A DNA stretch of 64,000 bases, from contig OZ076409.1 of the NCBI GenBank assembly GCA_964187785.1, positions 10,976,001 to 11,040,000 on the forward strand, read 5' to 3'. The DNA is from Amphiscolops sp. MND2022. Taxonomy: Eukaryota. The position numbers and the translations under genes were made by a program. How positions within the stretch are numbered: position 1 is the stretch's first letter; each line of letters begins with the position of its first letter. This document shows positions 1 through 60,684 of this stretch, piece after piece. The notes under the pieces were generated by a model that saw only the letters and a list, made by a program, of their open reading frames with translations, did not search any database and had not been told where the DNA came from.

Positions 1-3000
1 GATCAACAACAATGGACGAGCTGCCGTCAACACTATTTCCAGAGACGATTCTGTCGAGTTTGAGGTGAACTTCCTTCCTAGTGCAGATTTCTTAAAGTTT
101 TTACATGCTGCATGGAGACATGCAGGCTAATCTTTTACTCCAGTCAGAAAACTTTCGAAGCTCTTGATAAGAATCGTGCAATTTTGTAAACCCTTTGGCA
201 AGATACTTTTCAAGAGCGCCAAGAATATGTAAGATCTTGCAAGATCTTGCCAAGAAGTCATATGAAAAACTGACAAAAACTAACAAAAACTGACGCCAAC
301 TGCGGTTTGATCAGCAAACCATTTATGTCACAGCTATCGGCGCTACCAACCAAGCTATCACGATCTGAAATTCAATACTTTGTGTTGTCATATAGCTAAA
401 ATATCAAAGATTGATAGTGCAGCTGGTAGTGCGAACAATAGCCAAGTACTTGTGAACAAAATTGTTGTTTGTTTTACAACTTATTCATTTTCTTGACACT
501 CTTGATACGACTCTTACCAAGATTCCTATCAAGAATATCTAGAGGTTTGTGTGAAGCAAGAATAAACAAGATCTGATGAAGGCTTTCAAGAGTAAATGGG
601 AATATGTACGAATATGCGAGATCGTGGCAAAAATTTCAAGATATTTTGCACTGGGATGGTATGCGTCGAAAACAAAACCGGTCCTAAAGTAACTGTCGAA
701 TAATAATTGAGTGCAAACTCGTCAAATAATTACAGATTACCCACAGGGATTAGTCAGTGCTAACTATGAAATAATTTTCCTTAATTGATGCGTGAAATTT
801 TCAGGTTTGCGCAAAATTTCGCTTTTTTAGTTATGTAATTGCTTGCAATGTTTCATTTCTATAGTTTACAGTGTAATAATTCACTTTTAAAAAGTTTTGA
901 TAATAGTACGATCACAAAGTTAACACTACATCCGCCAGAGAACTTTCGACGAGTTGCTTTTCGAAGAGTTGTTTCCGACGAGTTGTTTTCGACGAGCTGT
1001 TTTCGACGAGCTGTTTTCCACGAGTTTTCCTAGATTCATCCTTTACAAAACTCAGGGAAAATTCAGGGAGAAACACTTCGTAGGTTACAAGACGCCCGCT
1101 AAGCACCGGGATATTTTCCGCTAACAGAATAGTCAAGTAATTAAAATAGTCAAGTAATTCTAGTGTTACTGGTCAAGTAAGGTGAAACTGGGAGGAGATT
1201 TGGCTGAATTTGGAAAAAAAACGCAAAACAGATAATGATTTTCCTCCCCATTTATGTGGGCGGAAAATAACAATGCATCATCCACAGTCCAAGCAGTTTC
1301 AACGTTTCAACCAGGGTTTCATTGTCAGAATTCAAAAAAGTCCAAAGGAGACTCCATTTGAACCCATCGAGAGGTATCGATGGACCCATTGCAGTGTTTT
1401 CCGATGGCTATCTATTGGATTTCAATTATCGCCAAGCGCGTTATGACCCCCTGGGAAGCATTTTGGGTCTACTTTTTCTGACCTGAATCTGCTTATCTAG
1501 CGTGAATGAGCTTTTTCGGGCCTAAACGTTACTCATCTTAATGTTTTGTCTCCAATATTGTCCTTTTTTTGTTTACCTCTCTGCAAAATAGTCTGCAAAG
1601 TAGCTTCAAAATCGTGGAATACCCAAGAATAAAGTTCATCGTCAGGGTATGTAGATTGCCATGCTAGGAAGTTACAGAGTATATTCGAACTGATCAGCAA
1701 CGGCTAATTCATGTGTTCAGGTCCTGTCGCAGGCTGCCGCCTGTGACGGAACTAGAATTTCAACAACAGCTGTTGGCCAAGATGTGGCTCCTGGGACCCT
1801 ACCTATTTATTAAAAGTAAACTGAAACTTTTCTTTAAACTTTTTCATTGTTTATGTATCTTGTTGCCTTGTTATTTTAAAAACTACCCGAAAGGGCCGTA
1901 CTGGGACATATTCCCTATTACCGAACCAAAAATGTGCTTGTTATTTATTTACAGACAACCTTAGTTTTGAATGTTAATTGTATATTAGTCCGTTAACATA
2001 GATTGTGTTGTGCTGTTGTTTTGTAAATGCAATGAAGTATTAATCGGAGATAATAGCAATCAACTTAGAGAAAGTACGGAAACGTGTTCAAATGGTCCTC
2101 TGTACTTTCTTGCTAGCGTCACTTGCGCTCACTCTATTAGCCAATCAGATGCCTTCATTTTGTACGCTTTATTCTCTTTTGCCGATTATGGCCTTTGTAC
2201 AATCTGGACGAGTGTGCTACTAATGCCGTTCAGGCAGACGGTCTAATCCGGCTATTTAGTCTACAATGAACATAGCACTTGTATTTAATGCTAATTCCAT
2301 GTAGTAATATTTTTTTAGTAGTAGGCTTTGTTGATCATGAAGTACCAATTTGAAGTGCTATTTAATGCTTTGTTGTGTTATTAACAAATAATTGCCCGAT
2401 TTTGCTCTAGTACAACCCTGTTGCATGAAATTTGATGTTATTGCCTTAACAGGCCTTTTGCCATTGTACCCATGAAAGGTATTTAGACTAAACATATTTG
2501 TTGTGCTGCCATGTGCTAAAGTATGTGCACTTACATCAACAAATACCTGTTCAATGAAAATATTTTGCCAAATATGTAAACGATGCTAACGGTTGAATGA
2601 TTGTTCCTTTGATGTATAATATTTGGAATGGATAGCGTTCATCCCGTGACCATCAGGAATGCAGTCATATGATATTGTCTTAGTCAAAGAATGTAAAGAA
2701 TGAGAGTGTCACTCTTTCGGGGGTTTAAATACCCGTGCCTTTGAGAGAGGAGACACTTCTTAATTTGCTCTCTTCTGAAAAGACTATCATATTAGTACAA
2801 ACGGTTTCACTGTTATTTTCGAGATATAATCTAATTCAATTTTATACTCGAAGTTTTCCTTATGCCTACTACGAGAAAACAAAAGAAGGCTAGAAAGTCC
2901 AGAGGACTAGAGATCCTTTCTGATATTGAAAATCTAGATATAATGTTAGGAGGCGATCGTTACAATGGAACTGAAAGAGAAAGGAGTTTAGACAGTAACT

Positions 3001-6000
3001 CCGTTAGAAGGAGAGAAAGTATCATGAGTAATAACTTAGACAACGAGGACGAAAGCCTGTTTTCAAATTGTAGAAATGATGAACCTAGGACAAGTGCCGA
3101 TCTTGGTCAAAACTCAGCTGAAGCAAACTCACTAGCTTAGATAAACAGGTTGTCAAGCGAATTAAACTCTAGGATATCCCGTGAGATGGATGAAATGATG
3201 AATAATGTTGGTACACAGATCCAGAGGGCCATCAATGAGGCTATTAACAGTCAAGTATTGCCTCAAATACAGAATGTCATAATGGCCGGATCAGGTCGAG
3301 AGACCAGAAGGGGATGGGAAGTCCCAGTTGAGAGATCGGAAGCAAATGCCGAGGAACAGCGGATTCAAAACGCCAAGGCTGACTGTAGAAATGAACAACA
3401 TGATGGATACCGTTCAGGTGGACCATCTACCCGTCATGTTCATGACATGGTGACAGGAGACAACGAATCTCCACTTCAAGTTCCCGAGTTTCTCACGGGA
3501 CGAGTCTCATCCAGAAACCATCTCGACAGGTCCTATGAGGATATTAACCTTGACACGACGATCCCAGCGCAAGAGAGAAATGCTCCGGCTGATCTAACTG
3601 ACCCTATTACTCGACTGGCAGATGTCTTGACAACGATGCAGAATAGGCCGACAGCCCAACAGCTCACTATACGCCCAGTCAATTCAAACACAATGACTTT
3701 TGATGGCAAGAGTGAAAAATTCGAGCTGTTTGAGGACCTGTTCCACACGATGATCAAGATGCAACCGGAAATGACGGAACAGATGAAAATAAATCACTTC
3801 CACTCACTGCTGAGGAAGAATGCTCTCCAAACCTTCCGGAACATCAGCTCGAGCAATAGACAGACTTTAGAGGACGTATTGGTAATATTCAGACGAAAAT
3901 ACGTCAAACCCGAATCACAGGCGACTGCCAAACATAAATGGAACCGTCTAGTCTGTGATCCCAACACGATGAAACTGCCAGATTTCCTTGAAGAATTAAA
4001 TCAAGGGGCAGAAAAAGCATTCGGGGATCACGCGCAGAAAATGATTGACAGTTTGCTCTACGCAAAACTGCCACCAAAACTGAAGCGGTCTGTAAACATG
4101 GCCAGACTCGAAAACGGCTCTTATGACGAAATAGTTGCTCATTTAGAGAGAGAGTTAGAACTAAATGCCCTTGAGGAATCAGACGACCTACCAATGGCCA
4201 CAATGACCTCCTCGACAACAAAATCCAAGACTCCTCTAACTACTGGGCAAATATCTGATATCACTTGCAACTATTGCAAGGAGAAGGGCCATATGGTCAA
4301 AGACTGTGAAAAATTGAAGAAGAAAAAGGAAAAAGATGCCCAACAAGGCAAACAGACTCAGAAAAAGACGTATCCGGAGTGTGGCACATGTGGTAAAAAG
4401 AACCACCCGGAGGAAAGATGTTGGCAAGGTGCTGGTGCTCATCTTAAACCCAAACGCACCAGACCAGAAGACGCTAATGACGGTAAACCCAATTCAAAGG
4501 CGCAGAAACCACAAAACAGGTCAACATCTTCCAACTCACAGGCCTCATCTTCCAATGATGAGTCAAAAAACTAACTTCGCCACGACTCCAATACAACGAA
4601 CTGATATCCGTCCGACAATACATCAGGTCGGATCCTCCAACGAAAAATTTTCATCAATATACACAACAATTGATGGGCTATCCCTCTGTTGTCTGGCAGC
4701 AACAGATGGACAAAGCAAAAACCATCACACATAACAACACACATTTGTTCCAAAAACCAATTCCTGTTTGGGACCCTGATTATACTACTACCTTCACTAC
4801 CCGATTCAGGCCCATTCCCCTGGTTGACAATTACAACCCTACCTACATAGATCCAGACTACGGCAGAGACCCCTATTGGGACACAGAAATCTACAACCAG
4901 GAACAACTACAATTCCAATATGTCTTAGACGATATCGAACACTATAATAGAACGGTCCACGAGAACCCTCCAATCACCCACAATAAAAAGACCAGAGCAC
5001 TAGTTGAAAACTGGCAAATGAATGATGGCACCAACCATCCAGTGTTCCCAAACCCATTGGGGACCGAGACCCATGAAGACGTTGCTCAACCCATACCACA
5101 ATCACTATTAGACGAGAAGCAATTCCAGAATGTCTTAATCACCAGGGACGGTGAACCAAACTGTGTACCATTGTCAACCAACATCAACCTCAAATGCAAA
5201 AAACGCATGTTGTACTTCCCCATGGACTTTGGGGAGTTGACCATAGATGGACTTATCGACACTGGAGCGCTGTCCAGTGCAATTCCTGAGATGGACCTCC
5301 GGAAAATTCGACTCCTATCTCCACAATCTGTTATCCGGGAAGGTCCGCCTCCAAATTTCCAAATCATGGTTGCTAATGGGCAATTGGAAACTCCTAAGAG
5401 TACCATAGAGCTCAAATTTGAAGTTGGTGACATTGAGTTTCATGAGATTTTTATAGTCATGGAACACCTGACAGGTCCGATTATCGGCCTAATGTTCCTT
5501 CAACGAAACCAAACAGTTCTGGACATGAGACAAGGAATACTGAATTTCCCGTTCTTCTCAATGCAGCTCAAAACAGCTGACCATAAATACTCAAATGTAT
5601 TAGAACCAATTCTCAATCCCATTGAGATAACAATTCCGCCAAATGATAGAGTCCTAATTAGGACCAATTCCCTACTGTACCCTGAGAATGCTGTCACTGG
5701 AATTTTGCAACCGAGCGACCTTCTACATGAATAAGGCGACATCACATTTTGCCCAGCTTTGGTCACTCTGAATGATGGCAACATATTGATACCAGTGAAC
5801 AACTTCACAGACCACCCCTATAAACTCAAAAAGGGACTTCATATTGCCAATTTCTCTGTTATGACGCCAGAACAAATGAAGTATCTCAAACCGGTAGACC
5901 CGGCATCAACCTGGCATCTTTTACAAAATGACCAAGAGCAGGCAGCCCACTATGTCAGCAGTCTCATCAAAACTAATAGAAATCCACAAAACTCCGAAAA

Positions 6001-9000
6001 ATACTGGTTCCCGACTCCAGAAAATCCTGGAAACCCTGAGGAACATACGCCCATACAAAAACGAATCCTCCAAGAATTACAGGCCTTACAGGTCCTGGAG
6101 ACACTTGACCCTACTAAAGATGACGAATCACGTGCAAAATTCCTAGAAAACTTTGACTGGAAGGATTCCACCCTTACTCCTGAAGAGAAGGAGAAAATTG
6201 AGGAATTGTTAGTGGAATTCCATGACAACTTTGCACGACACCGATTCGATATAGGCATGAACGAGGAATTCAAGGTGAAACTGACGCCTAAGGACGATTC
6301 CCCAGCCTATAGTCAAAGCCTCCCAGCTCCTATCAATTTGAAGGAGGACATCCTAGTCGAATTAGCCATGTTACACAAAGATGGCATAATAACTACACTG
6401 CCATTTTCGAAATACGCAAGTCCAATATTCGCACAAAAGAAACCGAATGGGAAACTCCGACTCTTGGTTGACTTGAGAAAAATCAACAACCTCATCTCGG
6501 ATGATTACATCAACAATAATCACCCCGTCAGTACACTAGTTGATGCTGCCCAACACTTGGCAGGCAAAAAACTGTTCTGTAAATTAGACTGCTCGCAGGC
6601 ATACCACTGCCTACCAATGTCTGACCAACGTTCAATCGAAATGTTGGCTTTCAATTTTGCCAGTCGCACATTCGCTTACAGACGATTGGCACAAGGCCTT
6701 AGTCGGTCACTATCCGCATTCTCGAGTTTTATGAGAGAATACCTTGACAAAGTAATTAAAGCGGATCAGTGTGCCCAGTATGTGGACGATATCGGCATCG
6801 CAGCCAATGATGTTGACCACCTCATGACGAACCTGAGAGCTACATTCAAATGCATTCAGGAAGCAGGCCTTAAGTTAACAATGCACAAATGTCATTTCGG
6901 TGCAAAACAAAATTGATTTCCTCGGACGGACTATTACCCCACAAGGCGTCAAACCCCAGAAACAGAACGTGCAAAACTTTCTGGAAAAGACCAAATTCCC
7001 GAAGTCGAAAAAGGCTTTACAACGATATTTGGGATTCCTAAACTACTACAGGAATTATGTCCCAAGACTCTCCGAACGCCTTGCTCCATTCTACAAGATG
7101 CTCAAACGAAAAGGTCCTAGTATCGAAAGAATTAGTCCAACAATTCGAAGAAATCAATAGAGCACTAGACAAATGTTGCGACCTGGCCCTACAACAACCC
7201 ATCCCGAACAAACAAATAGCACTAATGACGGACGCAAGTTTCGGTGCAGCTGGATACGCAGTATTAATAGAAGACGATCCGAACCAGAAATTTACTTCTC
7301 TTCGAAAATCCTATGCACCGGTGGCATATGGTTCAAAAACCTTCACCCCAGCTCAAATCAAGATGTCATTATATGCCAAGGAGATTTTGGCAATTTACTT
7401 TGCATTCAAAGAATTTGGGCATATATTCTGGGGTGCGCCCAAACCGGTCATAATCCTTACTGACAATAAGGCTGTAACAAGATTTTTCCAGACGCAAATT
7501 ATACCCCCAACACTCTGGAATGCGTGTGATTATGTGATACAGTTTAATTTTGTCATAGCGCATATCCCGGGGGCACAAAATACAGCCGCAGATTATCTGT
7601 CCCGATTGGAGGCAGACCCGAAGGACAAATTGGTCATGAAAATTCGGGAAGATGTGCAAACCTTACCAATAGAAATCAATGTCCAATCCTCAGGAGTATC
7701 CCAAGAGGAACAAATATTCTACACAAACGATGACGATGAGACAGAGGAACAGTACTGGGCAAGAAAAGAAGCAATCAGGACAAATCCAGTGATCGAATTG
7801 CCCACTGTCACAATACAAACTCTGTCTACAAATCTGGTAAAACAACAACCAGATATCCAAGTCCGTCTAAGGAAAACGAACCAGATCATTATCGAGCAGT
7901 CCAAAGATGCAGTATTGCAGCAGCTGAAGGCAAAGCTCCTTCATGAAGATTACTCAGAGAACATACTGCACCAGGACGTCCGATACAGACATTATGCAAA
8001 CAATATGGAACGACTTGCCCTAAAAGACGAAATCCTGACAAGGCAATATTTTGATGAGACAGGGAATGTGAAATACCATCAGATTTTACTCCCGCAACAC
8101 TTATTTATTCCGGGAATTGCTTCAATCCCTTCACGGGACAGCGCATAAACACCCCGGAATTTCAAAAATGCTGCAGGAAATCAGACAGAGATATTACTAC
8201 CCTAGCATGGCTAAACACGTCAAAAAGTGGGTAGAAGGGTGTGAACAATGTGCCACAGACAAGAGAGTCCCTAATGCAACGATCACACCTGAACTGCTCA
8301 ATTTGCCCGGATGGGACCTTGGACCTGAAGACGCCATGCAGATTGACTCACTGCCGAATCTTCCCCCAAGTGGAGGATACGAAAACGTCCTAACGGCAAT
8401 CGATGTATTTTCTAGATATTTGTTTGCTTACCCTCTTACGGACGCATCAGCGATCAATGTAGCAAAAGCGCTCATTGATATCATGACAAAACATGCGTAC
8501 TTGCCAACAACGCTTATCACTGATAAAGGTACCGCATTTACTTCCACAATTATCGCGGAGGTTACGCAAATTTTGGGAATTACACTCAAATGTGCGACGA
8601 CGAAACACCCGCAAACAATTGGGAAATTGGAGCGGACCCATGCCTCATTAAAGACAAATCTCAAAGTGGCATGTGGGGAATACCGCCGACAATGGCATAA
8701 ATACTTGCCATTAGCAGTACTGAATCATAATACAAGTTACCATGCCAGCATCAGCTGTGAACCAACGAGAGTATTCCATGGCCGAATTCCCTACAATATC
8801 CTAGATCATAAGCTTGGAAATAATCCAAACGAAAAGATCAGCCCTACAACCGAATTTGCTGAAGAAATCCAGAACAGGACGAAAACCCTAATAGACAAAA
8901 CGAAGCAAAATATTATGCAGTCATATATCAAATACAAGGAATATTATGACCGCAAAGCGAAAGCTGCTCCATTGAAGGAGAATGAATTCTGTTTTGTCTT

Positions 9001-12000
9001 ACAGCCGAAAGCGGACCATCAAGGATCGAAAATCCCATTCCGCGATTATCGTTGGGTTGGTCCATTCATAGTGCAAAAAGTCTTACCAAATGAGAATTAC
9101 ATTGTACGACGGCTTAATACAAACAAAACTCAAACATTGCATCGAATTCGCCTTAAAAAATTTGTCCCCAATCAACCGCTTGAGGACAATTTCCGAGAGC
9201 AACGCTTGCAGCCAGACGAAGAAATTGTTATTCCGCAGGACTTATACATCATAACGTGGGAAACCGACTTTGGCGAGCAGCTAACTACGCGAGACAACGA
9301 AGCTATTCCGACTAGCTTACCGAATGGCGAACAGCCGAGTACGGCACAAATTAACAATGACGCAAACGAGAGCGACGCGGATTATATAATCACGCGAGAA
9401 ACGAATAAAGACAATACGGCACACAGCCGGAATGACCGCTTAAGTGACAACGTCACAACGAGAAATGAAAATAATGATGCAAATAGAAATAAAGAATCTG
9501 ATTGGCCGAATCCGGCCGCTAGCCCAAACACTCAAGAAAAATCTTTACCGAGTACAGCAAATGCACCGGAAAATCATGAAATTTTGTCAGAAAGAAATTC
9601 GCTGAATGAAACGATGCACAATATTCTCCAAATAGGGGGGATGATATTATCGTGCCCGAAATATCTGAAAACGATGCTAGAAATGAAAGCCTGAGCCCTA
9701 GAGGAGGAAAATATAACCTCAGGCCTAACCCCAACCCGAACTACTCAGAAGACTATAGATACTAGAGAAAATTAAATTCGATTCAGGAAACTAGCCCTGA
9801 ATTGTTTTGCCTTTTTTCTCTTTTTATCTTTTATCTTTTAGTCCCAAGGCGAATCTTTTGAATAAATAATTGGGACAGCCAACAAAACCCCTTCAGAAGA
9901 ATAAATACGGGGCAAAAAAAAACAGAAATGAAAATTCAACAAAAGAAATAAACAAAGTTTACAGTTTGAGAGTACATATATACATATGTACATTTAGTTT
10001 TTAGAACTGCTAGCTGAAGATTCGTCGGCAACAGACGAAGCCCTAGAACGCGAAATGGCCCTCTCTATTCGTCTTCGCTTGCTATCACTGGGAAGTTTTA
10101 CTGCAGAGGCATCAGGGATAGATGAGGTATCTGCTATAGTGGGGCTACGAAATTGAAACTCTGACCCAGAAAGGATAGAACGGTAAGAAGTGACAAGGGT
10201 CTTGTAAATAGCAGTCCGGCCGAAACCGTCTACAAAAGGCCAAGGGTCATAATCGGCGGCGAAAGCGGATTGCCCGAAAGAAGAAGACAGCTGCTGGAAC
10301 TTCTCAAGTTGGGGCTCAGTGCAGCAGGCTAGCAGGGAATCAGGATCTGAAGTCAAATAACGTTGGCAGGGTAAGATCACGTCTACCAAACGGGACTGAA
10401 GCCCTGTTGTATCGATTCTCCCAAAGGAAACTGGGGGATATTCAGGATTGATAGTAGTTATGCAAAGACAGCTAAACTTAAACAAATAGCAAAGATGATC
10501 ATGGGACTGAAGGAATTCCAAATTCATGAAGAAATCGATGAGATCAGGAGGATCCTTGGCTGAACTAAATTCAGCGGAGTGATTGTTCCGGAGGTGGTCC
10601 AATAGGGCAACATACTCGTCTCGGCAAGCTGACTCGTTGAATTCCGAGACCCAGAAACGCAGCTGGAATGTGGAGTACAGGCAATCAAAATGGCGCAAAG
10701 CAACATCCACTGGTCGTTTGAATAGGATGTATGGGTCGAACGCTGCCAACCCTTTGATAAGTTCGAAACTAAGTTCAGTATGTTGGAGAACCTCCGACAA
10801 CAGGAACTTGATGTAATTCCTGGCGCTTGCTGCGAAATCCAATTTGGCCTGGTCGGCAGTCTTACTAATCGCTGCTTTACTGGACTTCATGTTGAAGTGG
10901 AGTCCAGCTGCTTTCAAGTTGCTTGCTGTAGTAACTTTGCCAGCGATCTTGAGATGCACCAGAAGGTTCTCGTCTCCCATGAATGTACCCTGGTTGAGCT
11001 GGAAATTCATCAATAAGAACCAGGCGTTCTCTAGTGGCACTGTATCCGGCTGGAAGATGCGGAAGCAAAGGCGGTTGATGTATTTGCACACTCCGCCACA
11101 GAGGAAGAAGGAGGCATCACGTCTCTGACTCAAATTGGTGACGAAGCTGGTGACATCTGAAATTCACAAATCAATGGTCCTTAAAAGGACAACAGACCAA
11201 AGGGATCTTAGTAGATTGAGAATACTCACAATCGCTGACCAAACGTTGAAAAAGCTCCAATTTGGCAGCAAAGAAGTTGTCCATGATGAGGGACCATTCG
11301 AAGCTCTGGACCTAGGAAAGAAGCAGTGTGAACACCTTGAGACTTACCCATCAACGATAATGCAAGGAAAGCAATTACTACGATTCCTTATGTAAAGAAA
11401 ATGCCACTTGAAGTTCATAACCTTATTGTGCACTCCTTGATTCTCTTGGCGAGATGAATGGGCTGTAAGATAGCGGAGGATTGTTTTCCACTTCTTCGAC
11501 AAGGTTCGGCAGAGTTCAGGAATTTTCTCCACTTCTAGTCTGCAGGTCGTGATTGCCTAAACAAAGTAATCCTCAGGATTGGAATTTCAACTGAAGTTGC
11601 TTACCACCCCCTACCAGTGTAATGTAAAAAACTAGACTCACTCGGACAAGTTCAGGTGACTCTGAAACCCAGTCTTCAGATAGGCATCCTCCGAGTGAGA
11701 CTAAGAGACTTTGGAGAACGGAAAACATGTCTATGTGCCCAAACACACTGTAGTTCCCCTTGTGCATCAAGGTACGCAAGTTGAGCAGTTCGAAGCGGAA
11801 GCAACTTTGAACCCCTCGCGGATAGGCTGGGTGATGGTCCACCGTCCTGATCAGGTCGACAGCGCAACCTGAGATCGCAACTATGTCAGGAGCAGTCGAT
11901 ACGACGGATAACAGTCGAGATAGGGAGCCCAGTTCCTCGGTGAGTCCAGCGCCGGTGAGGCCACTTCTGCAGATGAATAGGCGGCAGAGTTTCGCTCCTT

Positions 12001-15000
12001 TCCAGAACCGCAGGGACATAAAGCGATTAGCCCCTCTCTTCTCAAACTCAACTCCGAAATGCTGGGAGGCGCAGACCTGTTCAGCTATGTCCTCCATCAG
12101 GCAATTGAAGACGTGTTGGAAGATGGCCTGAAACGGAACAAAATTGGATGAATAACATGACGTCACTTTCCTGACCCTTCCCTACCACCTAGTTCAACTT
12201 TTTGGAAAACAACTGAGAGATCTTACCATGATGTGGTCCTCATTCCAATTGAAGTCCTGGAAAGCTGACTGAAACTCAGTGTAACTTCCAACTCTCGCCC
12301 ACAGTTTTCGAAGCAGTGCCAAATCTCCAGAACTTTGGATGAAGTCTCCCAAAAGACATATCTGTGTTCGTAACCGGGACTGTGGAGTGATGGGAGCGGA
12401 AGTGTGGCCTTGCAGATAATCCTCGTAGAATGGATTTCTTTCTCCAACGTCAACGAGCTCCGTGTGTATGAACCTGGGTAACTCATCAGCGAGTTCCTTC
12501 TTACTAAGAATTTTGCCATTCTTCCCCCTGACGCGATGCTGAACTTTCCCAGTCACAAGATCCACTGTTTTGAGGTGTTCATACCTCCACCTCTGGTCTC
12601 GGCGTAAATGTTTTTCGGTCCTGTGATGGCGCAGGATTTCAACGGTGCCCTTGGTTTTTATACTAAAATTCTTTTTACACATGTGGCACCATACCATGTG
12701 TGGATTGTGGAGGGGATCAGAGGGCCCAGAGATAAAAGATCTCGTCCACCCGATTTTGGAAAGAAACTCCTCCCTCATGGGTACGCCTCGTCTGGAAACC
12801 TTTTTCACTTTGGCTGATTTAGCAGTTGTGGTACTTTTTCGGGACCTCTGGGTAGGCGTCCTATTCTGGATCTCAGAGAGGGTAATGTCGAGGCTACCCT
12901 TTTCACCTGTCTCAGCTCCCTCCTCAGAAGAATCTTTTGGCTGCGCTGGCTGGGGCGTTTGAGGAGAACCCCTGGGATCTGAGAGTCTGGTTGATGAGAG
13001 CCATTTCAGTAGAACTGTCACTCTCGTTGGGATCAAGGAAATCACTGACGTTCTGGAGCAGACTCATGTCAGTTTGTGACTCATATCCTGACCCGAATTC
13101 AGTCAAAGTTCCTTCAGAACCGGATCTAGCAGGTAAATTGGGACCAGGAGTGGACGAGCGGGCCCGGATCTGAAACTTTTCTGTCCTCGAGGGGGCTGTT
13201 GCGGGTGTTCCTCTGACAGCTCCAATTACCATCCTTTCCATGGTCGAACAAGTCATGTTGATGGCCTCATCGGTTAAAACCCGGAGCAAGTGGTAAACTT
13301 GTGGCTCAGTAAATGCGACGACTCTTTGTCCGACCGGGAAGGTGTAAGGGTCCTCGGTCTCGAAGTACTGCTTCAAGGTGGCTCGACTTCGCCCTGACAA
13401 ATCTCGCAAGGTGTCGTTTTGACCTGATTGGCCAGATCTAGATGTGCCAGGTTGGCCCGGATCGTGAACTTCTGAGCCTGATTCACCTCCAGTTTCTGAT
13501 TGCTGTGTAGAGTCAAAAGGGTTCATAGCATATAATGGGGGGCACTCAGCTTGACTGATGTTTTCTGATGTTTGATTGGCATCACTGAACTCACCAATAT
13601 CTTCAACTTGGTCTTTCCTCCCAGGAAGTGGAGGAGGTTCTATGATAGAAGAGGAGGCATCCCCTTCAGACTGTAAGAATGGGACTTCAGACATCCCTTG
13701 TGTCTGATCTTGGAGGACTTGCAACTCGAGAAACCCTGTGCTCATCATCGGCGCCACTGAAAGCGAGGATTCAAGTTGGGTGAGACTATCTACTGAAGTC
13801 CCTGGCTGATTTGGTGGATTAGGTGTGCCAGATCGTACAAATTCAGCACCCTGGACTGCAATTTGGACTAATTGGCCTTGGGCCGTAATAGGACCCTCTT
13901 CAACGTTACTAGCAGAATCGGCTTCAGTAAGTCCTTGTATGGTCTCCATCCTCTGGGACTCCTGATTTGCATAGGCGGTGACATCGGCATTGCTCTCATT
14001 GTGGAAGGAAGAGTCTACAGTCATATGCTCGGTTTGTCCACGGGCAGCCCTGATTGGAGGGAAAGGAGGCGGTGAAGGATTAACTCCAGGAACATATCCA
14101 GACGTGAAAATGGGGACTGGGCGTTGAATAGCCCCGGCAGAATTGTCAGTTGTGTTGGTGGTTTGAACTTGAGGTTCATCAGGATTCTGGTTATCTAAAC
14201 AGAAAGAGATGAAATTTGGCGGTAAGCTTCCTTGAAAGAAATCCATTACGCCGCATTAGAAAACTTCCGGAAGTGTTTTGAAAATTTGAATGAAACGGTT
14301 TATCACGTGTTCATTAGTAGATACAGGAAGCGTTTTGTGAACAAATTCGACCTTGATCAAGTTGAACTAGTTCAAACTAGGAGAAAATCAAACCAACCTG
14401 TATTAGAAGACATTCTGTTGAAACGGCCCACTTGGATACAGTTCCGATTCGGACGTTGTTGAAAAGGGGGAATTAGAAGTGCTCGGGGATGAAGCAAGGG
14501 GAAAGAATCTGCGATGAAGCAGGACGTGGTCCGATGCAGGCACCGAGACGAAATTGACGATGAAGATGAAGATGAAGATTAAATTGCAAATGAAAGGATA
14601 AACGGAACAATAATTGGAATTAAATCAGGAATTGAATGAGTAAAAGAATTACTAAAAGTTGGAGTTCGTGGCTGAAGATTATTACCAGACTAATATTATG
14701 GGATTATCTACATATTTATTCTGTACATGGAGTCTGCCAGCGAAGTGTACAAAAACTTTGTTATTTACAGCTTACTTAGTTAGTGGCCTATTCCGGCCGT
14801 TTGACCAGTTGCACTTTATCGTTTCGTTCAGTTATCTTAGTTATTCTTAGTTAGAAAATCCGCCATTTTGAATTATTTTGATTTGTTATTTTCGCCATTT
14901 TTTTATTTAATTTTTCAATTATCAGAGCTTAACTCTGATTGGCTGAAGCCATGTTGGAAGTATTTAGCGACGCGTGCTGTTAATTGTTCTGAAGCAAGCC

Positions 15001-18000
15001 GTTAATTACCTACTAGAGGTGAAGATATTTGATATCAACAACTTAAGTGCTGCTTACACCTACTTTGATGATGGCTTTGATGAAGGACAAACATCAAACC
15101 AATCGGAGCCGCCAACCCCGTTTAGGAATTCCATTCAGAAAAGTTTACGATGAATCGGGGCAATCAACCTAAGATTCTCCCGCTAAATTGGAAACTTCGG
15201 GAAAAGTCCTAACTCGGAATTTGGGGAGGTGATAAGCTCATTCTGATTTCAAACCCGCTCACGACAAGTTGACTAGAAAACCTTCAAAATTGCAAAAAAA
15301 CTGATAATGGAGAAATTCAACAAAGCGAGAAAGCTCTTTGGTTCTCTTGACTTTAGCTCGGACTCATCAAATAACTCTGTAATCTATATCAGTAGCGACG
15401 AAGAAACATCCGAAGGATGGGACTCAGATTGGTCAACGGACACAGAGGAGCTGGTGAGGAGAGTTGAAACTCAAGTCCAAGCCCGGCCAATACCCATAGC
15501 AGGAAGAAAACTAACTATGGCAAGTGATGAGCCTGGCCCCAGTACTGTGCCGCCCAACATGCAGACCACGCCAAAGCTAGACAAGAAATACTTTGATGAG
15601 AAACTTTGCTATGCTCCAACTAGAGGCAACACAAAAAGGAGGATAGAACTGTGCAAGACGATTCTGCCAGTTCTAGAGTCTCCACTATCTCCCCCTGCCC
15701 ATGAGAGGGGGCCGTCAATGCACACGCCGCTATTACAGCCTGAAAACAGTGGATTTCACGCCTCTTTCCATATTCAGAATGCGCTTCCTTACACGGACAT
15801 CAGTACCCAGAGGTGTACGAGTTGCATGGTCTGTGGAAAGTCAGTAGACGAAATAAAGGCAATAAAAGTGACTCGCTATATGGAAGCTTCAACGCCTAGA
15901 AGCGAACCGGCGTACATAACAGCTCTCAGAAAGGAGGCTTACATCAACGGCCTCAATGCTGGCAGTCTTCTTTTCATCGCACCCGCTGTGTCGCAGGCTG
16001 CCGCCAGTGACGGAACTAGAATTTCAACAACAGCTGTTGGCCAAGATGTGGCTCCTGGGACCCTACCCATTTATTAAAAGTAAACTGAAACTTTTCTTTA
16101 AACTTTTTCATTGTTTATGTATCTTGTTGCCTTGTTATTTTAAAAACTACCCGAAAGGGCCGTACTGGGACATATTCCCTATTACCGAACCAAAAATGTG
16201 CTTGTTATTTATTTACAGACAACCTTAGTTTTGAATGTTAATTGTATATTAGTCCGTTAACATAGATTGTGTTGTGCTGTTGTTTTGTAAATGCAATAAA
16301 GTATTAATCGGAGATAATAGCAATCAACTTAGAGAAAGTACGGAAACGTGTTCAAATGGTCCTCTGTACTTTCTTGCTAGCGTCACTTGCGCTCACTCTA
16401 TTAGCCAATCAGATGCCTTCATTTTGTACGCTTTATTCTCTTTTACCGATTATGGCCTTTGTACAATCTGGACGAGTGTGCTACTAATGCCGTTCAGGCA
16501 GACGGTCTGATCCGGCTATTTAGTCTACAATGAACATAGCACTTGTATTTAATGGTAATTCCATGTAGTAATATTTATTTAGTAGTAGGCTTTGTTGATC
16601 ATGAAGTACCAATTTGAAGTGCTATTTAATGCTTTGTTGTGTTATTAACAAATAATTGCCCGATTTTGCTCTAGTACAACCCTGTTGCATGAAATTTGAT
16701 GTTTTTGCCTTAACAGGCCTTTTGCCATTGTACCCATGAAAGGTATTTAGACTAAACATATTTGTTGTGCTGCCATGTGCTAAAGTATGTGCACTTACAT
16801 CAACAAATACCTGTTCAATGAAAATATTTTGCCAAATATGTAAACGATGCTAACGGTTGAATGATTGTTCCTTTGATGTATAATATTTGGAATGGATAGC
16901 GTTCATCCCGTGCCCATCAGGAATGCAGTCATATGATATTGTCTTAGTCAAAGAATGTAAAGAATGAGAGTGTCACTCTTTCGGGGGTATATATACCCGT
17001 GCCTTTGAGAGAGGAGACACTTCTTAATTTGCTCTCTTCTGAAAAGACTATCATATTAGTACAAACGGTTTCACTGTTATTTTCGAGATATAATCTAATT
17101 CAATTTTATACTCGAAGTTTTCCTTATGCCTACTACGAGAAAACAAAAGAAGGCTAGAAAGTCCAGAGGACTAGAGATCCTTTCTGATATTGAAAATCTA
17201 GATATAATGTTAGGAGGCGATCGTTACAATGGAACTGAAAGAGAAAGGAGTTTAGACAGTAACTCCGTTAGAAGGAGAGAAAGTATCATGAGTAATAACT
17301 TAGACAACGAGGACGAAAGCCTGTTTTCAAATTGTAGAAATGATGAACCTAGGACAAGTGCCGATCTTGGTCAAAACTCAGCTGAAGCAAACTCACTAGC
17401 TGAGATAAACAGGTTGTCAAGCGAATTAAACTCTAGGATATCCCGTGAGATGGATGAAATGATGAATAATGTTGGTACACAGATCCAGAGGGCCATCAAT
17501 GAGGCTATTAACAGTCAAGTATTGCCTCAAATACAGAATGTCATAATGGCCGGATCAGGTCGAGAGACCAGAAGGGGATGGGAAGTCCCAGTTGAGAGAT
17601 CGGAAGCAAATGCCGAGGAACAGCGGATCCAAAACGCTAAAGCCGACTGTAGAAATGAACAACATGATGGATACCGTTCAGGTGGACCATCTACCCGTCA
17701 TGTTCATGACAGGTCCTATTCATTATTCCAGCCAATATTGATCTTATTCTATTTTCAAACTAAACCAGTTGGAACGATTTTTCTTCTTCAAATTCTTGAA
17801 ATCCATCGATGGGCTATCGATGGCTATCGCTGGGAATTTTGACCTTTAATGCCCATCGATGCTCTCCTATATTTTAATTTCATTATTGATGGTTCGAACC
17901 ATCAATAATGAAATCGAAACATCGAGAGCATCGATGGGCATTTGAGGTCGATGGGATTTCGATTGAAAAATGATATCAAAACCCTCAATTCGTTTGAGAA

Positions 18001-39235: not shown

Positions 39236-42200
39236 TTAGTTCAACGAGGTTTTAGCCATTCCTACTGATCTGTTGGAGCGAAACTTCCTGGTGTAAGTTC
39301 CCACTTCCGCTTTGTTGACACCATCGGATTGTCCGACTGCGTCAAGGTTATTGTCATTGGATGAAATCGTCAAAGTAGTGTCGGATTTGTTCGTCTCGGC
39401 TTCGGAGTTCGGCAGACCAATCAGAGGTGTTGCCGGTTGAGTCCGAGTTGCAGTGTATGCTGGTTCTTCAAAGAAGCGGTCTCGGGCTTGTTTCATTGAA
39501 TGACGACAACAGCTGAGACTGCGAGGAGTGTGATGACTTCGTTTGATGCTGACCCGAGTGACGTCACCGCTCGGTTTCCTCTCGGAAGACGGCTTCGGTG
39601 ACGTCATTGACGTTGCTCCATCTGCTAGTTTCCTACATCACAAAAACTGTCTGGTAAAAAATTATATATGTAAGTTAGCTAGGCTCTCTGGATTAATAGT
39701 GCTTCGATAATCAGACAAAAGCGCCCCAGACAAAAACGCTCCAGACAAAAGCGCCCCAGACAAAAGCGCCCCAGACAAAAGCGCCCCAGACAAAAGCGCC
39801 CCAGTCATAAGATACATGGGGTTTGCTGACTTTTTTCCGCCATCAACTTTAAGTTCCTCAATGCAATTTAATAAGTATGAGTTTTTCTTTTTAAAACAGT
39901 GTATTGATAAATTGATTCTTTAATAAATTAAAATTTTGTTGACAGAAACTTCAAAATTAATAATTTAAGTCTTTAATAATAAAAGTTTCCAATTAGAATT
40001 TGTTAGGTGTGAAAATGTCAAACCTGTGAATTTTTGTATTTTGTGAGTTTTTGTATTACCCGTATTTGGTTAGAACGCCTTCAATTAGATTTGAATAGAG
40101 GCGATGAAATCAGCTAACAAGCCGGGACCGGCCCAAATCGGCGCCATATCTAAGGCTCAAAAATAGCAAAAGGACTTCAATATGTCAAAGTATTGGTGAG
40201 TTGGGGACCCTTTTATGAAAAAAAATTTTTGGAAAAAAAGTCTCACAATGCCAAAAAAAACTGAAAGGGTGGACCCTTTGGGGGTTTTCAACATCCATTT
40301 TGTCGCAAAACATCAAAAAATTGAAGGGGGACCCTTTGGGGAAAAATTTTTCCTGAAAGAAAGTCTCACAATGCCGAAAAAACTGAAAGGGGGGACCCTT
40401 TGCTCTCGCCCGGTATGGTATGTTACGCGGGAAAACAGGAAAAACCTTTTTGGTTCAGTTCGCTAGGCCAAATGGTGCACTTTGGTGCAATAATATTTTG
40501 TAGAACTTTTGTAAAACTATTTTGGTCAGTTCAGGTGGTCTTAAAAAAACACTGACGAAAAGCCATGACTATAGTCGACTCTTTTCTAAAGAAAAGCGCC
40601 GACTGAAAAATAAGCGAGGCGCTTTGTATTGAGGTGTTTTTACTGGGGCGCTTATGACTGTGTAAAATAGGCGCTTTTGACTGGGTTGCTTTTGTCTGTA
40701 CACGAGCTTTTTCACAGTTCTCAACGAATCAAACTACTCAACTGGCGAGTTCAATATCCGACAAATTCAATCGGAATAAAAAAGCCAAGAATTGACCTTT
40801 TGGCGTTGCTGAAAGATCAAGGTTCTTCAAAACATCTCAATCTTATTGAGAAAAATGGCACTGAGCCCGTTGTCTTTTTTGTCACTTTCAGCCCGATTTT
40901 GGGAAAAAGACTCAAATTAGCCGGAAAAATTCGGCAATCATTCGGCTCATTTAACTGAAGAGCAAACTATCTTTCTATATATAGCCAAGTTGAAGATCCA
41001 CGTTCACAAATGAACACATCATTTCCAAGAACAAAGATTGAAAAAATTCACTCTGAAATTCTCAGTGGACCGAGAATGGAAAGCATGAACAAAAAAGCGC
41101 TCAGATCAACTTGACTTGGAATGTTGCTATTCCGGCATCGTCTACTGAGGTTCAATGAATTCACAACTTTGCGTAATCAATAAACGAAATTGCCGGTCCG
41201 GTCGACCAACTTTATCTTCTACACTCACTATTGTGAACAAAAGAGAATCCAAGATCTTTTTAGTTAATGAAAAACAGGGGAAAGACACTTGATAAAAAAT
41301 TGGCGGAATTGTTCGATTCCTAAAGTAACACAACGAAGAATCGTTTGAAGTAACAAAACTCGAATTTTAGATATATCTGATCTGTGAAATGAAATGTAAC
41401 GACATTGCCACCATACTGTTTTTTGCATTCGATTTTCAATGGATAATAAGATTTTTGATGTATTAAAATGGAAGCGAAGCCCCTTGTTAGCAGATCATGG
41501 CTTTTCATGCATAATTCATCCATGATTCATAAGTACGCCATGCCGAGAATCATTCCATGGTCATGGAAAGATATTAATGGTTCATGTATAAAAGCCCATA
41601 AATTTAACCATGATAATTTCTGAACTAGAAAATTGGTAAACTGAAATTAAATGTTCCACGACGAAAAGTGCAAGACGATATGTTAGTTCGTTTCAAATTT
41701 TGCTTTATATAAATACGTTATGATTCAACAAGTAATTTACCGAACTGAAAGTTTTCTAGATTATATTTTCTGTTATTTTCAGATACTGTTGTTTTTGCAG
41801 TTAACATTCCTCTACACAAAAGTTGTTTCAATCAAAGACTTCTTATTGGTTTTCGCTGAAATGCGTAAATTATTACAGAACTGCCCAAAAGCTTCCACGG
41901 TTAACAAAACATGGTGCTTTTGGTAATGGATCTTCGTGGATGAGACATGAGTTCTTGTCATAGCTATGATCATGAATGATTAGCCAAGACTCCCAAGATT
42001 CGAATGTAATGCAAATCACCATGTAGTATTGATACTAAGCTAAAAAGCCTAAAAAAGAATGAATGAAAGTCAATGCATGCAAATTCTTCTATATACCATT
42101 CGGTTACATTATCGAGTGCCTAATATCACGGCTACCTTATTTTCAATTGATGACGTAACAATGACGTAATGACAAGAGAAGACGTGCATGCAATACCGAC

Positions 42201-45200
42201 CCGTAGCGCTGATATATGATGAAGTCTGTGGCCTCGGGGTTGGTCTCCTGGATGATCTGGAGCACCTTGCTGGTGGTTGTGCCGTCCAGCTGGAACAGCT
42301 CCTGGTGACACAGGATCAGAGTCTGGGTGATGTACACTATTGGGGTGTAGTCCTCTATGTACTCCATCTTCTCCACTGTGATGTCGCTGTGACTCGCCGT
42401 CTTGCTAGAGGGCGGCTTCAGAAGCGTGGGTCCGAACACAGTCGCCAGGTTCGCCGCGTTCATCTTGCTCCCACTCATCTGCAAGAAGAGCGACCACATA
42501 TGTACCATATATCTACGCATTTGCTACCATGGAACTTTTTTCAAGAACATGGTAAACCTTGGAATCCTTGTCAAGATCATGGTAAACCTTGGAACCCTTG
42601 TCAAGATCATGGTAAACCTTGGAACCCTTGTCAAGATCATGGTAAACCTTGGAATCCTTGTCAAGATCATATTAAACCTTGGAATCCTTGTCAAGAAAAT
42701 GGTAAAACTTCGAACCCTTGCCAAGATCATGGTAAACCTTGGAACCCTTGTCAAGATCATGGTAAACCTTGGAATCCTTGTCAAGATCATGGTAAACCTT
42801 GGAACCCTTGTCAAGATCATGGTAAACGTTGGAAGCCTTGCCTAGATCATGGTTAACCATGGTTAGCCTTTGCACGATCTTCCATGGTCATGGTATCCTT
42901 GCCAAGATCATTGCAAGATTATAGCGATATATTGGCAAGTTTCTTTTCTTGCAGGGGCAATAGAGGCTTTTCTGCAGAATTCAAGCAGCAAAAATGAAGT
43001 TCGTAGCATATGTACTGCTGAAGATGTTCAATTTCTCTTGAAAAAAGTGCCTAAAATGCTTCAAAAAGTGGCAAAAACCCCAAAACAAAAATTTTCAGAT
43101 TTCTGCAGTTAGACAATTTTAGTGAAATTTTGAATTTTTCCGTTGGAATAAATGTCCACAGTATAACACTCGACACTGACAGGGCTACCAACGAGCAGGT
43201 GCATAAAAAAGCCCCATTCTCAATAATACATCAAATGATTGAGCAGCACAAAAACGTATGCTCAGTGGAATTTGATTCAAATTATTCACGTGTGCAGCCA
43301 GTGGAGAGTAGCTAAAAGGAGTTTTCAAACACAATTTCGAACACATTAGGGGGTGGCTACCTCTGGGCTAGCATTTGGTCCCTGTTCGGCGGTGGTGGCC
43401 TGGTGGATTTCGGACAGGAAGGACACGATGCAATGGAGGGTGTCTCTATTCGCCCTCGGCAGCAGACACAGCAGGTACTTCAGACACTTCAACTGCAACT
43501 TGTGATCGTCCAGCTCTGAAAAAAACAGAATTTTTTTCTCCCGACCTTTTCATGAAAATTTCAAAGTTCTCAAAAACTGTTCATACGATTTTCATAAAAT
43601 TTTGCAATCATTTTACACCCAAAGGGGCCCCTGCGTGTTCAAAGCAATAAAATCGTATGACTGGAATGTGAGAAACATAGCCAAAATTAGCCCAAAAACA
43701 GCCATTTTTCGACTTTTTTCGATTTTCTCAAAAACTGTCCATACGATTCGAACGAAATTTTCTCCAGTCATTCTACACCATATTAGAGTCCTATATGTGC
43801 AATGGCATCAAAATCGTATGGCTGGGATGTGAGAAACATAGCCCAAATTAGCCCAAAAATGGCCAAAGTCAATCATTTTTCAATTTTTTTTCTTCGATTT
43901 TCTCAAAAACTGTCCAATTTTCTCAAAAACTGTACGATTCGAACAAAAATTTCTAGTCATTCTACACCATATTATGGTCCTTTATGTGCAATTTCATTAA
44001 ATTCGTATAGCTGGGATGTGAGAAACCTATCCAAAATTAACCCAAAAACGGCCAAAAACAGCCGTTTTCGACTTTTTTTGATTTTCGCAAAAACTGTCCT
44101 TACGATTCGAACGAAATTTTGTACAGTCCTTCTACACGATATTATCGTCCTTTGTGTGTAATTTCATCAAATTTGTACTACTGGGAAGTGAGAAACATAG
44201 CCAATATTAACCCAAAAATGGTAAAAAAACAGCCATTTTTCGACTATTTTTGATTTTTGCAAAAACTGTACATACGATTCGAACGAAAATTTCTAGTCAT
44301 TTTCTTCACCATAGTATGGTCTATGTGTGCAATTTCAATAATTTCATATAACTGGGATTGCAGCGAGTCAGAAGGAAAAAGACCTAAGCCGACTCCTTTA
44401 CAGCATATGCGGCTCTGGTTTTATACACCTGAAGTGACCAAAAAAGTTCTACTAAAAATTCTACAAAATTTTAAATTGTACCTGTTGGCCCAAGGAACTG
44501 AACCACAAAGGTTTTCCCTTTTTTTCCGCGTATCATATAATACCGGGCGAGACTAGTGTCCCCCTTTCAGTTTTTTCGGCATTGTGCGACTTTTTTTTCG
44601 GCATTGTACGGAAGGGTGAAAATTTCCTTCAATTGTTTTTGAGTTTTGCGACAGAATGGATGATGAAAAATCCCGAAGGATTCCCCCTTTCAGTTTTTTC
44701 CGCAATCGTGAGACTTTTCAAACATTTTTTCGGGTGCTCTAGAAGAGAATACTTGACACTTTGAACTCCTTTTGCTATTTTTGAGCCTTAGATATGGCGC
44801 CCACTTGGGCCGGTCCCGGCTTGTTTCTCAATCTTTAACTAAAGCATGAGGAAGTATCACAGACCTTGGAAAATAATGGTTGCCATTCTAATATTACTGG
44901 AAAAATAAGGTATTTTTTTACGATTTTCGTCTCCGAAAAAAATATTGCAATATTTGCAATAATAACTTTTCAATTTAAAAAAAAAACATTGTTTCCAAGA
45001 TTGGGTTCAACTTCGAATCGTAATAATTATGGAAAAACAGTCTCTCGCGACAAGATTTTCTCCACAGTTGAAAAGGTCAAGAGATTTTGATTGAATTTTG
45101 GAAACAAATTAGAAAACATGCTGCAGCGAAAGAAATTATCATATTTATTTTGTGTCAATTATTGGGAAATAATTCGTCAACGCCATATTTTGTTTCAATT

Positions 45201-59996: not shown

Positions 59997-60662
59997 ATGG
60001 TATATGTGATAGGTGCAAGCTCTTTGAGGAACGCAGTGAGTGCATTACATTACAAGTCCAAAAAAGAATACGAGAAACGTGTAACAGCTATCTCTGGTCT
60101 CAGTCTCAACCCATTATCGAGTAACCCCCTCAAAAACTTGCAGAATCTCCTACGAAAGGGATCTTTGGCAAAACAACAAAATCTGATAATTTGGCACGAC
60201 ATCATTAATAACTCCCTATCAGTACATTGGAAAACTCGAACGCCGGCCCTCACACCGGAAGAACTTGTCAAATTACTAGTTCACTATCGAGATCGAATCA
60301 GTGCTGTTGTTTATTGTCGCAGATTTGGGACCCCCGATGTTTACAAGGAATTGAAAACAAGTGGTATTCCCATCATAAGTGTAAGAAAAAACTTGGTGTC
60401 AAAACGAAAACAGCGAGACAGTGATTTGCAAATAAAATTATCTGCGGTGCATCAGCAACATCATCTGGAATTGAAATCGCTGAGTATTGTTTTCAAAAAC
60501 AGTCACAATCTGAACGCACTGACGAAGAATAACCACTCGAAAAAGAACCGACCATCTCAGAAGAAGCGGCGAAGGAAACGGAACTTCGGGTTAAAGGTTA
60601 GTTTCATTTGGGCATCTTTTCTTTTGTGGTTGGCCTTCGGAGATTCTTTTCTTGCTGGCTAG
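59997..60662 (+). CDS. LINE ORF0: putative SGNH/GDSL-esterase-like protein with a basic C-terminal stretch
   Basis: MVYVIGASSLRN resembles SGNH block I (GDS); also AISGL, LIIWHDIINN and KKRRRKR. Fold assignment is an inference. Confidence 0.55.
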   Translation: MVYVIGASSLRNAVSALHYKSKKEYEKRVTAISGLSLNPLSSNPLKNLQNLLRKGSLAKQQNLIIWHDIINNSLSVHWKTRTPALTPEELVKLLVHYRDRISAVVYCRRFGTPDVYKELKTSGIPIISVRKNLVSKRKQRDSDLQIKLSAVHQQHHLELKSLSIVFKNSHNLNALTKNNHSKKNRPSQKKRRRKRNFGLKVSFIWASFLLWLAFGDSFLAG

Positions 60663-60684
60663 CTACTTTAGTTGAGTGCCTAAA

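Follow-up and report, generated by a model that had tools for sequence, protein, structure and literature searches.

The gag reading frame of a 16-kb Ty3/Gypsy element (positions 1725-17711 of the window, the 64-kb stretch of DNA that was analysed) begins 586 bp inside the long terminal repeat (LTR) and crosses the integrase attachment (att) site and the primer binding site (PBS), and it likely specifies, at a rough probability of 0.8, a single Gag of 570 residues, with the first 195 encoded by the LTR. Features are on the forward strand unless noted. The 5′ LTR (1725-3447; 1723 bp, ends TGTC...GACA) was 99.07% identical by blastn to the 3′ LTR (15989-17711), with 16 differences over 1723 bp. 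A 5-bp target-site duplication, GGTCC, flanks the element on the left (1720-1724) and the right (17712-17716); the direct LTR pair, the TG...CA termini and a duplication within the 4-6 bp of the class are thus all present. The pol region (4562-9694) has the order PR-RT-RH-IN, with Pfam gag-asp_proteas, RVT_1, RT_RNaseH, Integrase_H2C2, rve and Integrase_p58_C following one another as in Gypsy-type elements. BEL/Pao was considered and rejected: Peptidase_A17, DUF1758 and DUF5641 did not occur together in one ORF, all three Pfam families being absent, and gag and pol lie in different frames, against a BEL/Pao assignment; a DUF1759 match in gag was marginal (25.5 bits versus the Pfam cut-off of 25.4). 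This Gypsy family is large and very abundant, and the window copy is decayed, pol being broken by a stop at 5732-5734 and by frame changes near 6910, 7100 and 8100.

As the sequence-only reading had claimed, the ATG at 2862 (LTR position 1138) lies in frame with gag and 586 bp upstream of the LTR end, a distance of 195 codons and one base, or 34.0% of the LTR. The junction between LTR and internal region translates as HD/MVTG, codon 196 being composed of the last LTR base, A, and the TG of the PBS, and the ATG at 3447 straddles the junction without a spacer before the PBS TGG. The gag frame thus takes in the final third of the LTR together with the right att site and the short PBS (the latter two at 3441-3459); whether it also takes in U5, as claimed earlier, would depend on the position of the R/U5 border. 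The LTR-coded frame claimed earlier is uninterrupted in the 3′ LTR copy, which is open over all 195 codons (17126-17710), and the claim is supported for the family as a whole; the 5′ copy cited for it has an in-frame stop at codon 93 (3138-3140) that had been missed, and the window copy is therefore unable to make the long Gag. The open frame is not a product of chance: shuffling its 585 bases 20,000 times never gave a stop-free sequence, and none of the remaining five frames in the 3′ LTR stays open for more than 75 codons. Over the full length of the LTR, the best change point in composition is 2871, 9 bases from the ATG at 2862, and AT skew shifts there from -0.13 to +0.26, the skew of gag being 0.29. 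Four of the five LTR-LTR differences within the coding segment (2862-3447) are synonymous and, because they are clustered within 16 bp, probably represent one event.

The same layout was found among relatives, which were drawn from predicted ORFs of 313-998 residues and ordered by score; those with the extension are all ENA proteins and may derive from one host. The same starting methionine was present in 107 of the 120 best relatives, under a ranking that favours long open frames, and none of 325 proteins started at the junction methionine, under a ranking that hides forms starting at 196. In all 106 relatives beginning MPT the distance from this methionine to the junction was 189, 195, 197 or 198 residues, and no stop interrupted the frame in either variable linker or in the PBS. 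The LTR-coded part was 50-79% identical among 14 representatives, which are related to one another, and full-length representatives head clusters of 281, 138, 89, 60 and 56 members. A survey of the junction in 205 cluster members and 50%-level matches gave 180 anchored sequences, 98 of which had HD or YD at the expected place; the PBS-coded word follows in 46 of these, and the other 52, as LTR read-outs, run on into unrelated sequence. The next residue fits a codon beginning with A in 49 of the 52 read-outs (31 strictly), versus a background of 42.7% (p = 3e-15), and the LTR therefore ends at the first base of codon 196 across the family. The possibility, raised in the sequence-only reading, that the upstream frame is not conserved failed in the relatives, and its proposal that att site and PBS are protein-coding is supported at the family level by the relatives' start, the junction phase and the conserved blocks. 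Querying metagenome and viral contigs with gag identified no locus; an RT query identified 15 loci, each of at most 4 kb, one of which (L010) reaches an LTR.

Transcription would likely start from a TATA-like site (2724-2731) about 135 bp upstream of the ATG at 2862. Capped ends would be expected near 2750-2765, a strong-stop cDNA of about 690 nt is predicted, and AATAAA at LTR position 307 and ATTAAA at LTR position 1437 are candidate poly(A) signals. The TATA box previously placed at this site exists as TATATATA only in the 3′ LTR (16988-16995), the 5′ LTR having TTTAAATA. No ATG occurs between this site and 2862, and translation would likely begin at that first AUG to give one 570-residue Gag. 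A competing but improbable explanation is that the particle-forming Gag begins at an inner methionine (codon 109, 112, 113 or 196) by way of a second promoter or spliced RNA, the LTR-coded part being mainly a separate short CERV-like accessory protein. In-frame ATGs at codons 28, 55, 109, 112, 113, 141 and 196 and an ATTAAA at 3161, inside the frame, are consistent with this, and two published elements show comparable arrangements: BARE, which also has a long LTR, employs a pair of TATA boxes and keeps its RNA in separate pools (PMC3735527), and the CERV of Cer1 is spliced, with exons common to gag (PMC10309623). However, linkers and PBS kept open in every MPT relative would be needless for a separate short protein, and 21 ATGs lie upstream of 3447.

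Two blocks of the LTR-coded part are conserved. The tip (codons 1-30, 2862-2951; 86% identity, 67 distant matches) contains a basic, NLS-like stretch and a leucine-rich, NES-like pattern, found in 98 and 93 of 106 relatives, respectively; both patterns are short, and a strict NES pattern arises in 2.9% of shuffles. The second block (codons 93-141; 78% identity, 67 distant matches) falls within a 57-residue helix predicted by AlphaFold2 over codons 86-142 (3117-3287), with pLDDT of 70-85 over 91-140 and hydrophobic periodicity. BLOSUM-positive substitutions reached 65% in these blocks, versus 30-38% and 35-44% in neutral simulations that lacked indels, the block limits having been set after identity was known; in the linkers (31-92 and 142-190) 24-30% of substitutions were conservative, a neutral-like change. 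Protein-like conservation of the two LTR-coded blocks is thereby shown at the level of sequence. An untranslated frame, left open as a remnant in young copies and containing blocks conserved as promoter, poly(A) or packaging signals in DNA or RNA, would fit the neutral-like linkers, the location of the segment where R/U5 signals are expected and the selection of open frames in predicted-ORF libraries. This is nevertheless very unlikely given the excess of conservative substitutions in both blocks, the predicted helix with its hydrophobic periodicity, and the presence of full-length representatives in large clusters when 9% of neutral lineages stayed stop-free at the observed divergence and 1.5% at linker-level divergence.

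The LTR-coded part of the 570-residue Gag is predicted to form an extension in the matrix position, consisting of the basic and leucine-rich tip, the long helix and two near-neutral linkers, ahead of capsid and knuckles. It had no useful Pfam match (YpjP was below the cut-off), no PDB sequence match and one Atlas match, with a score of 0.78; a complex prediction with two copies of residues 82-148 scored 0.02, evidence neither way on self-association. The rest of gag (3448-4574, stop at 4572-4574) is predicted to encode a helical capsid-like domain (approximately codons 285-439) and zinc knuckles, as judged from the model and from Pfam DUF1759 and zf-CCHC. The zf-CCHC match was below the Pfam cut-off, and PDB sequence matches to retroviral NC had an E of 0.001. 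In Foldseek the gag model, with a mean pLDDT of 49.9, gave retro-type capsids as top rows, weakly (E of at least 0.11 in PDB), and three viral rows at E ≤ 0.001. The C-terminal ESKN of gag recurs in 109 of 120 relatives, and an A AAA AAC heptamer (4565-4571) before the gag stop is a candidate -1 frameshift site from which Gag-Pol would arise. The PBS, which may match tRNA-Leu, begins TGG and shares 11 of its first 12 bases with that of L010, later bases being different. RNA folds did not clearly beat shuffles for the PBS (z 0.19), leader (-1.77), slippery site (-0.92) or left junction (-0.97).

Judged from its sequence, the other LTR end is coding too, by way of a conserved 256-codon ORF (15307-16077; 150 relatives) that has its last 29 codons in the 3′ LTR and spans the left att site and the place of the polypurine tract. 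The distance from the junction word to the stop was 29 residues in 76 of the 90 relatives having that word and, assuming the same LTR edge, 83 of these have P at position -2 and 88 have A at position -1 relative to the LTR. HIV nef, MMTV sag and foamy virus bel are accessory ORFs that similarly run into U3, and there the polypurine tract is kept inside the ORF, whereas in the present element no such tract can arise from the codons that precede the LTR. No polypurine tract was found directly before the 3′ LTR in the window copy; a pyrimidine-rich stretch (15969-15988) occupies the expected place, and the nearest purine run of at least 9 is at 15928-15937. Inspection of this flank by eye revealed no inverted mimic of the PBS. 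Since class membership rests on pol, a polypurine tract is only a usual feature of Ty3/Gypsy. Its lack before 15989 would be odd for a true LTR edge. A shorter true LTR, with 2862-3447 as internal sequence that became duplicated at the 3′ end of the window copy, is nevertheless largely refuted already and barely credible: the target duplication directly borders both 1725 and 17711, the LTR ends read TGTC/GACA, position 3447 is followed by a TGG primer site, and this is the base at which 49 of 52 independent read-outs stop.

The brevity that had been stated for the gag/LTR overlap of Ty1 was confirmed, at about 40 nt, from two reports that place the 5′ UTR at 53 nt (PMC5454406) and the PBS from nt 94, with GAG starting in the LTR-derived leader and the PBS inside GAG (PMC4974528). 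Both elements thus have the Gag AUG inside the LTR and a short PBS (10 nt in Ty1, about 12 here) within gag; they differ in that the overlap here is 586 nt, about fifteenfold longer, with two conserved blocks, that Ty1 belongs to the Ty1/copia superfamily and this element, with IN last, to Gypsy, and that the left LTR end is also coding here. In Cer1 of C. elegans, itself Ty3/Gypsy, CA is preceded by a long Gag extension for which a lengthy coiled coil is predicted, and CERV/Gag contains NLS- and NES-like motifs (PMC10309623), a likeness by description rather than by sequence. That report lists positions 957 and 1175 of Cer1 as 5′ UTR, beyond the 492-bp LTR, and the extension is therefore not LTR-coded; Cer1 also makes a spliced CERV, whereas the window element is known here from DNA, and its likeness to CERV/Rev-like export factors lies in sequence patterns and a predicted helix. 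In barley BARE1 (Ty1/copia), RNA pools for translation and packaging are separate (PMC3735527), a possible answer to the PBS conflict that is hypothetical in the window element; the available text claims no gag start inside the LTR for BARE1. The Gypsy element L010, with an RT 66% identical, shares the zero-spacer CA/TGG junction and nearly identical first 12 PBS bases but has the usual layout, its 347 LTR bases being interrupted by 8, 4 and 11 stops in the respective reading frames, with a ACCACCATGG start 80 bp after the LTR, in one decayed copy. In full-text literature searches no Gypsy element with gag starting deep in the LTR was found, Repbase, GyDB, subscription papers and supplements lying outside that scope; such a start may already be described in Repbase, GyDB or subscription papers.

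By analogy with what has been proposed for the Cer1 Gag coiled-coil extension, the LTR-coded part may serve Gag trafficking (nuclear entry and exit) and self-association. Translation of this frame requires ribosomes to traverse the PBS, and the RNAs that are translated would therefore form a pool or state distinct from those primed by tRNA, as in Ty1. Location in the LTR means that the AUG and its 195 codons recur, open to the flanking sequence, in every 3′ LTR and solo LTR (the 3′ copy, 17126-17711, reads out to 17842), and LTR exchange at strand transfer would swap the coding module with the promoter. In recombination painting the two highest values among 38 bins (16.8 and 15.1) formed a modest peak at 181-210. 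Of 1187 pairs whose post-LTR parts are nearly identical, 350 diverge by more than 20% in the LTR part; among 300 control pairs, 151 likewise had their break at 190-199, so that rate change alone places many change points there. These comparisons are suggestive of a module swap at the LTR junction, a signal confounded with rate change.

An antisense accessory gene lies in pieces on the reverse strand (9994-14246; 179 relatives), with donor-like words at the piece ends and a hAT-transposase-like lead. Atlas feature matches with Dimer_Tnp_hAT scored 0.92-0.93, a recognition below the mark; no hAT Pfam family was found in 42 members, PDB and fold searches were blank or without clear match (fold Z ≤ 5.7), and inverted repeats in 9691-15310 amounted to a single 11-bp match with arms over 3 kb apart. 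It is a tentative, somewhat doubtful proposal that the LTR codes at both ends, pairing the promoter with a 195-codon cassette for a shuttling, self-associating, Rev/CERV-like Gag head. On this view lineages would exchange the head during strand transfer, and solo LTRs would express it, possibly as a brake on copy number; the second gene would overwrite the polypurine tract, forcing non-standard plus-strand priming, and an intron-bearing antisense gene would come from a hAT transposon.

Both annotation and LTR-divergence dating assume that LTRs do not code for protein; here, contrary to that assumption, a third of the LTR appears to be under protein constraint. If family-wide, the missing polypurine tract turns plus-strand priming into a testable question. 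The element would provide a natural test of one RNA being both translated across its PBS and tRNA-primed, far beyond the 40 nt of Ty1. Each solo LTR would amount to a promoter, a start codon and a helix open to host sequence, a possible route to fusion genes or to restriction by truncated Gag.

An element of about 16 kb at 1725-17711 is bounded by a direct repeat of 1723 bp (1725-3447 and 15989-17711; 99.07% identity, no gaps), whose termini are TGTC...GACA and whose outer sides are both flanked by GGTCC. Between these LTRs, gag and pol are followed by an antisense region and then by an ORF of 256 codons; pol has the PR-RT-RH-IN order of Pfam domains, and the element belongs to Ty3/Gypsy. The window copy is decayed, with one stop and three frame changes in pol. 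A heptamer, A AAA AAC, stands at 4565-4571 directly before the gag stop, and pol is in the -1 frame. Elsewhere in the window are a LINE-like element on the forward strand (59997-63958; endonuclease and RT Pfam matches at 61879-63958, two unassigned ORFs upstream) and a tandem array of 30-bp period (42472-42922) inside a 222-codon ORF (42188-42856).

The sequence-only reading held that gag begins within the LTR and runs on through the att site and PBS. The final 586 bp of the LTR (34.0% of its length) do open with an ATG, at 2862, in the gag frame, and the ATG at 3447 (codon 196) spans the junction, its A closing the LTR and its TG opening the PBS. That reading had overlooked a stop at 3138-3140 (codon 93), and its continuous frame in the 5′ LTR does not hold. 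All 195 codons are open in the 3′ LTR copy, an outcome seen in 0 of 20,000 shuffles, and none of the remaining frames there is longer than 75 codons. Of the 16 differences between the LTRs, five fall in this LTR-coded segment: the stop, and four synonymous changes within 16 bp that are probably one tract. The differences cluster at 2725-2728 and 3365-3380, which suggests that the window copy is recombinant, and the 0.93% LTR divergence may overstate its age.

A family search using the gag frame, with the stop read through as X, gave 2850 relatives among 8000 scored candidates; these are predicted ORFs in score order, biased to long open frames, and one host may be the source of all. The best 120 are unnamed ENA proteins, mostly of 563-573 residues, of which 107 begin with the same Met and 109 end in ESKN. 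From this Met to the LTR/PBS junction, the 106 relatives starting with MPT have 195 (86), 189 (14), 197 (5) or 198 (1) residues. The LTR segment alone gave 528 matches at E <= 0.001 against 50%-level representatives. The LTR edge was examined in 205 proteins predicted on 3′ or solo LTRs, where the frame runs out into the flank: 180 could be anchored by the conserved block, and [HY]D stood where expected in 98, followed by the PBS-coded word in 46 and by unrelated sequence in 52. In 49 of these 52 the next residue is compatible with an A-first codon (31 strictly, 18 as Ser or Arg); positions further on give 42.7% (p = 3e-15). An LTR ending in ...GAC A would have this effect. Taken together, the read-outs, shared Met and junction distances make the start, phase and LTR end family traits, and the in-LTR gag frame is genuine and family-wide.

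Identity among 67 distant matches is 86% over codons 1-30, 41% over 31-92, 78% over 93-141, 41% over 142-195 and 76-97% past the junction. In the two conserved blocks (1-30 and 93-141), 65% of substitutions among 14 representatives are BLOSUM-positive, compared with 30-38% and 35-44% in neutral simulation, the representatives being akin to one another, the block limits picked once identity was known, and the test not a formal dN/dS. The linkers are neutral-like in the same 14 (24% and 30%), and 9% of neutral lineages stay stop-free at the overall divergence. These patterns argue strongly for selection on the segment at the protein level. Base composition points the same way, the best change point anywhere in the LTR falling at 2871, where AT skew passes from -0.13 to +0.26 (gag, 0.29).

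A TATA-like word at 2724-2731 reads TATATATA in the 3′ LTR and TTTAAATA in the 5′ LTR. There are 30 ATGs in the 1137 bases of LTR upstream of 2862 and 21 ahead of 3447. Since none lies between the TATA-like word and 2862, ribosomes scanning an RNA begun near 2755 would take the AUG at 2862, and translation from the LTR-coded start is given a probability of roughly 0.8. Ribosomes would then cross the att site and PBS as in Ty1, whose PBS lies within GAG (PMC4974528); separate RNA pools, as noted for BARE (PMC3735527), are one way out of the conflict between translation and priming. Mapping of U3/R/U5 borders requires RNA, as remarked in PMC3601003. Candidate signals are ATTAAA at LTR position 1437 and, in the 3′ LTR only, AATAAA at LTR position 307 (window 2031 / 16295), 218 bp past the stop of the 256-codon ORF; were genomic RNA to use the latter, R would be moved far upstream.

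The AlphaFold2 model of an intact relative (mean pLDDT 49.9) has disorder, a single predicted helix at 86-142 (pLDDT 70-85), disorder again and, at 285-439, a predicted bundle of helices; the best structural neighbours of the bundle are retro-type capsids, as weak matches. With patterns as defined in the S1 legend of PMC10309623, K[KR]x[KR] was found at the tip (codons 1-30) of 98 of 106 relatives and a strict NES pattern in 93. The LTR-coded segment may occupy the matrix position and serve Gag trafficking and self-association, much as the extension of Cer1 Gag, a coiled coil, does in PMC10309623.

At L010, a locus with a related Gypsy element (RT 66% identical), positions 346-430 have the usual layout, an 18-base tRNA-like PBS with a strong-context ATG downstream. 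Both elements have a zero-spacer LTR/PBS junction, but the LTR part of L010 is interrupted in its three frames by 8, 4 and 11 stops, and the ATG there stands 80 bp past the LTR. This one decayed copy suggests that the in-LTR start is peculiar to the present family. The two PBSs share 11 of their first 12 bases and none of the six that follow, so that ours looks shortened. Just past the PBS core, at 3456-3472, is a T-arm-sized stem of five pairs with a 7-nt loop; the region folds no better than shuffles (z 0.19).

The 256-codon ORF (15307-16077, +) is conserved (150 relatives), has a CxxCxxC motif and crosses the left att site, its last 29 codons lying in the 3′ LTR. The junction word occurs in 90 of the 120 relatives listed, with the stop 29 residues later in 76 of the 90. 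No polypurine tract precedes the 3′ LTR, 15969-15988 being pyrimidine-rich; the nearest purine run, AGAAAGGAGG at 15928-15937, is 51 bases upstream, within conserved codons. Before the LTR edge the 90 relatives have F (86), P (83) and A (88), which a purine tract cannot encode if the LTR edge is the same in these relatives, and its absence there is apparently family-wide. PMC3383448 describes errantiviruses as having their PBS and PPT next to the LTRs.

An antisense multi-copy gene in pieces (9994-14246, -; 179 relatives) has donor-like words at piece ends 12226, 11604, 11347 and 11229 and a C2H2-like finger near 12540-12710. Introns in this orientation would survive reverse transcription. Sixteen source-sequence sizes are common to its match list and that of the 256-codon ORF (120 listed each). 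An Atlas lead to hAT transposases found no confirmation in Pfam, PDB or fold search on the region. The gap at 14250-15300, from which this gene and the ORF diverge, is a candidate internal two-way promoter.

In Ty1, a 53-nt UTR (as given in PMC5454406) and a PBS from nt 94 put ~40 nt of GAG ahead of the PBS, versus 586 in this element. Searches of the full-text literature, Repbase, GyDB, subscription papers and supplements aside, yielded no Gypsy case of a gag start deep in the LTR. Strand transfer would fuse the LTR-coded head from one RNA to the capsid of another. Heads differ by >20% in 350 of 1187 pairs with near-identical post-LTR parts, with change points all at 190-219, and four distinct heads occur with one group of such parts; in the control, 151 of 300 pairs break at 190-199 through rate change alone, and recombination painting gave a modest peak only. 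These comparisons are no more than suggestive of head swapping. As seen in the read-outs, every 3′ and solo LTR holds an AUG and 195 codons open to the flank.
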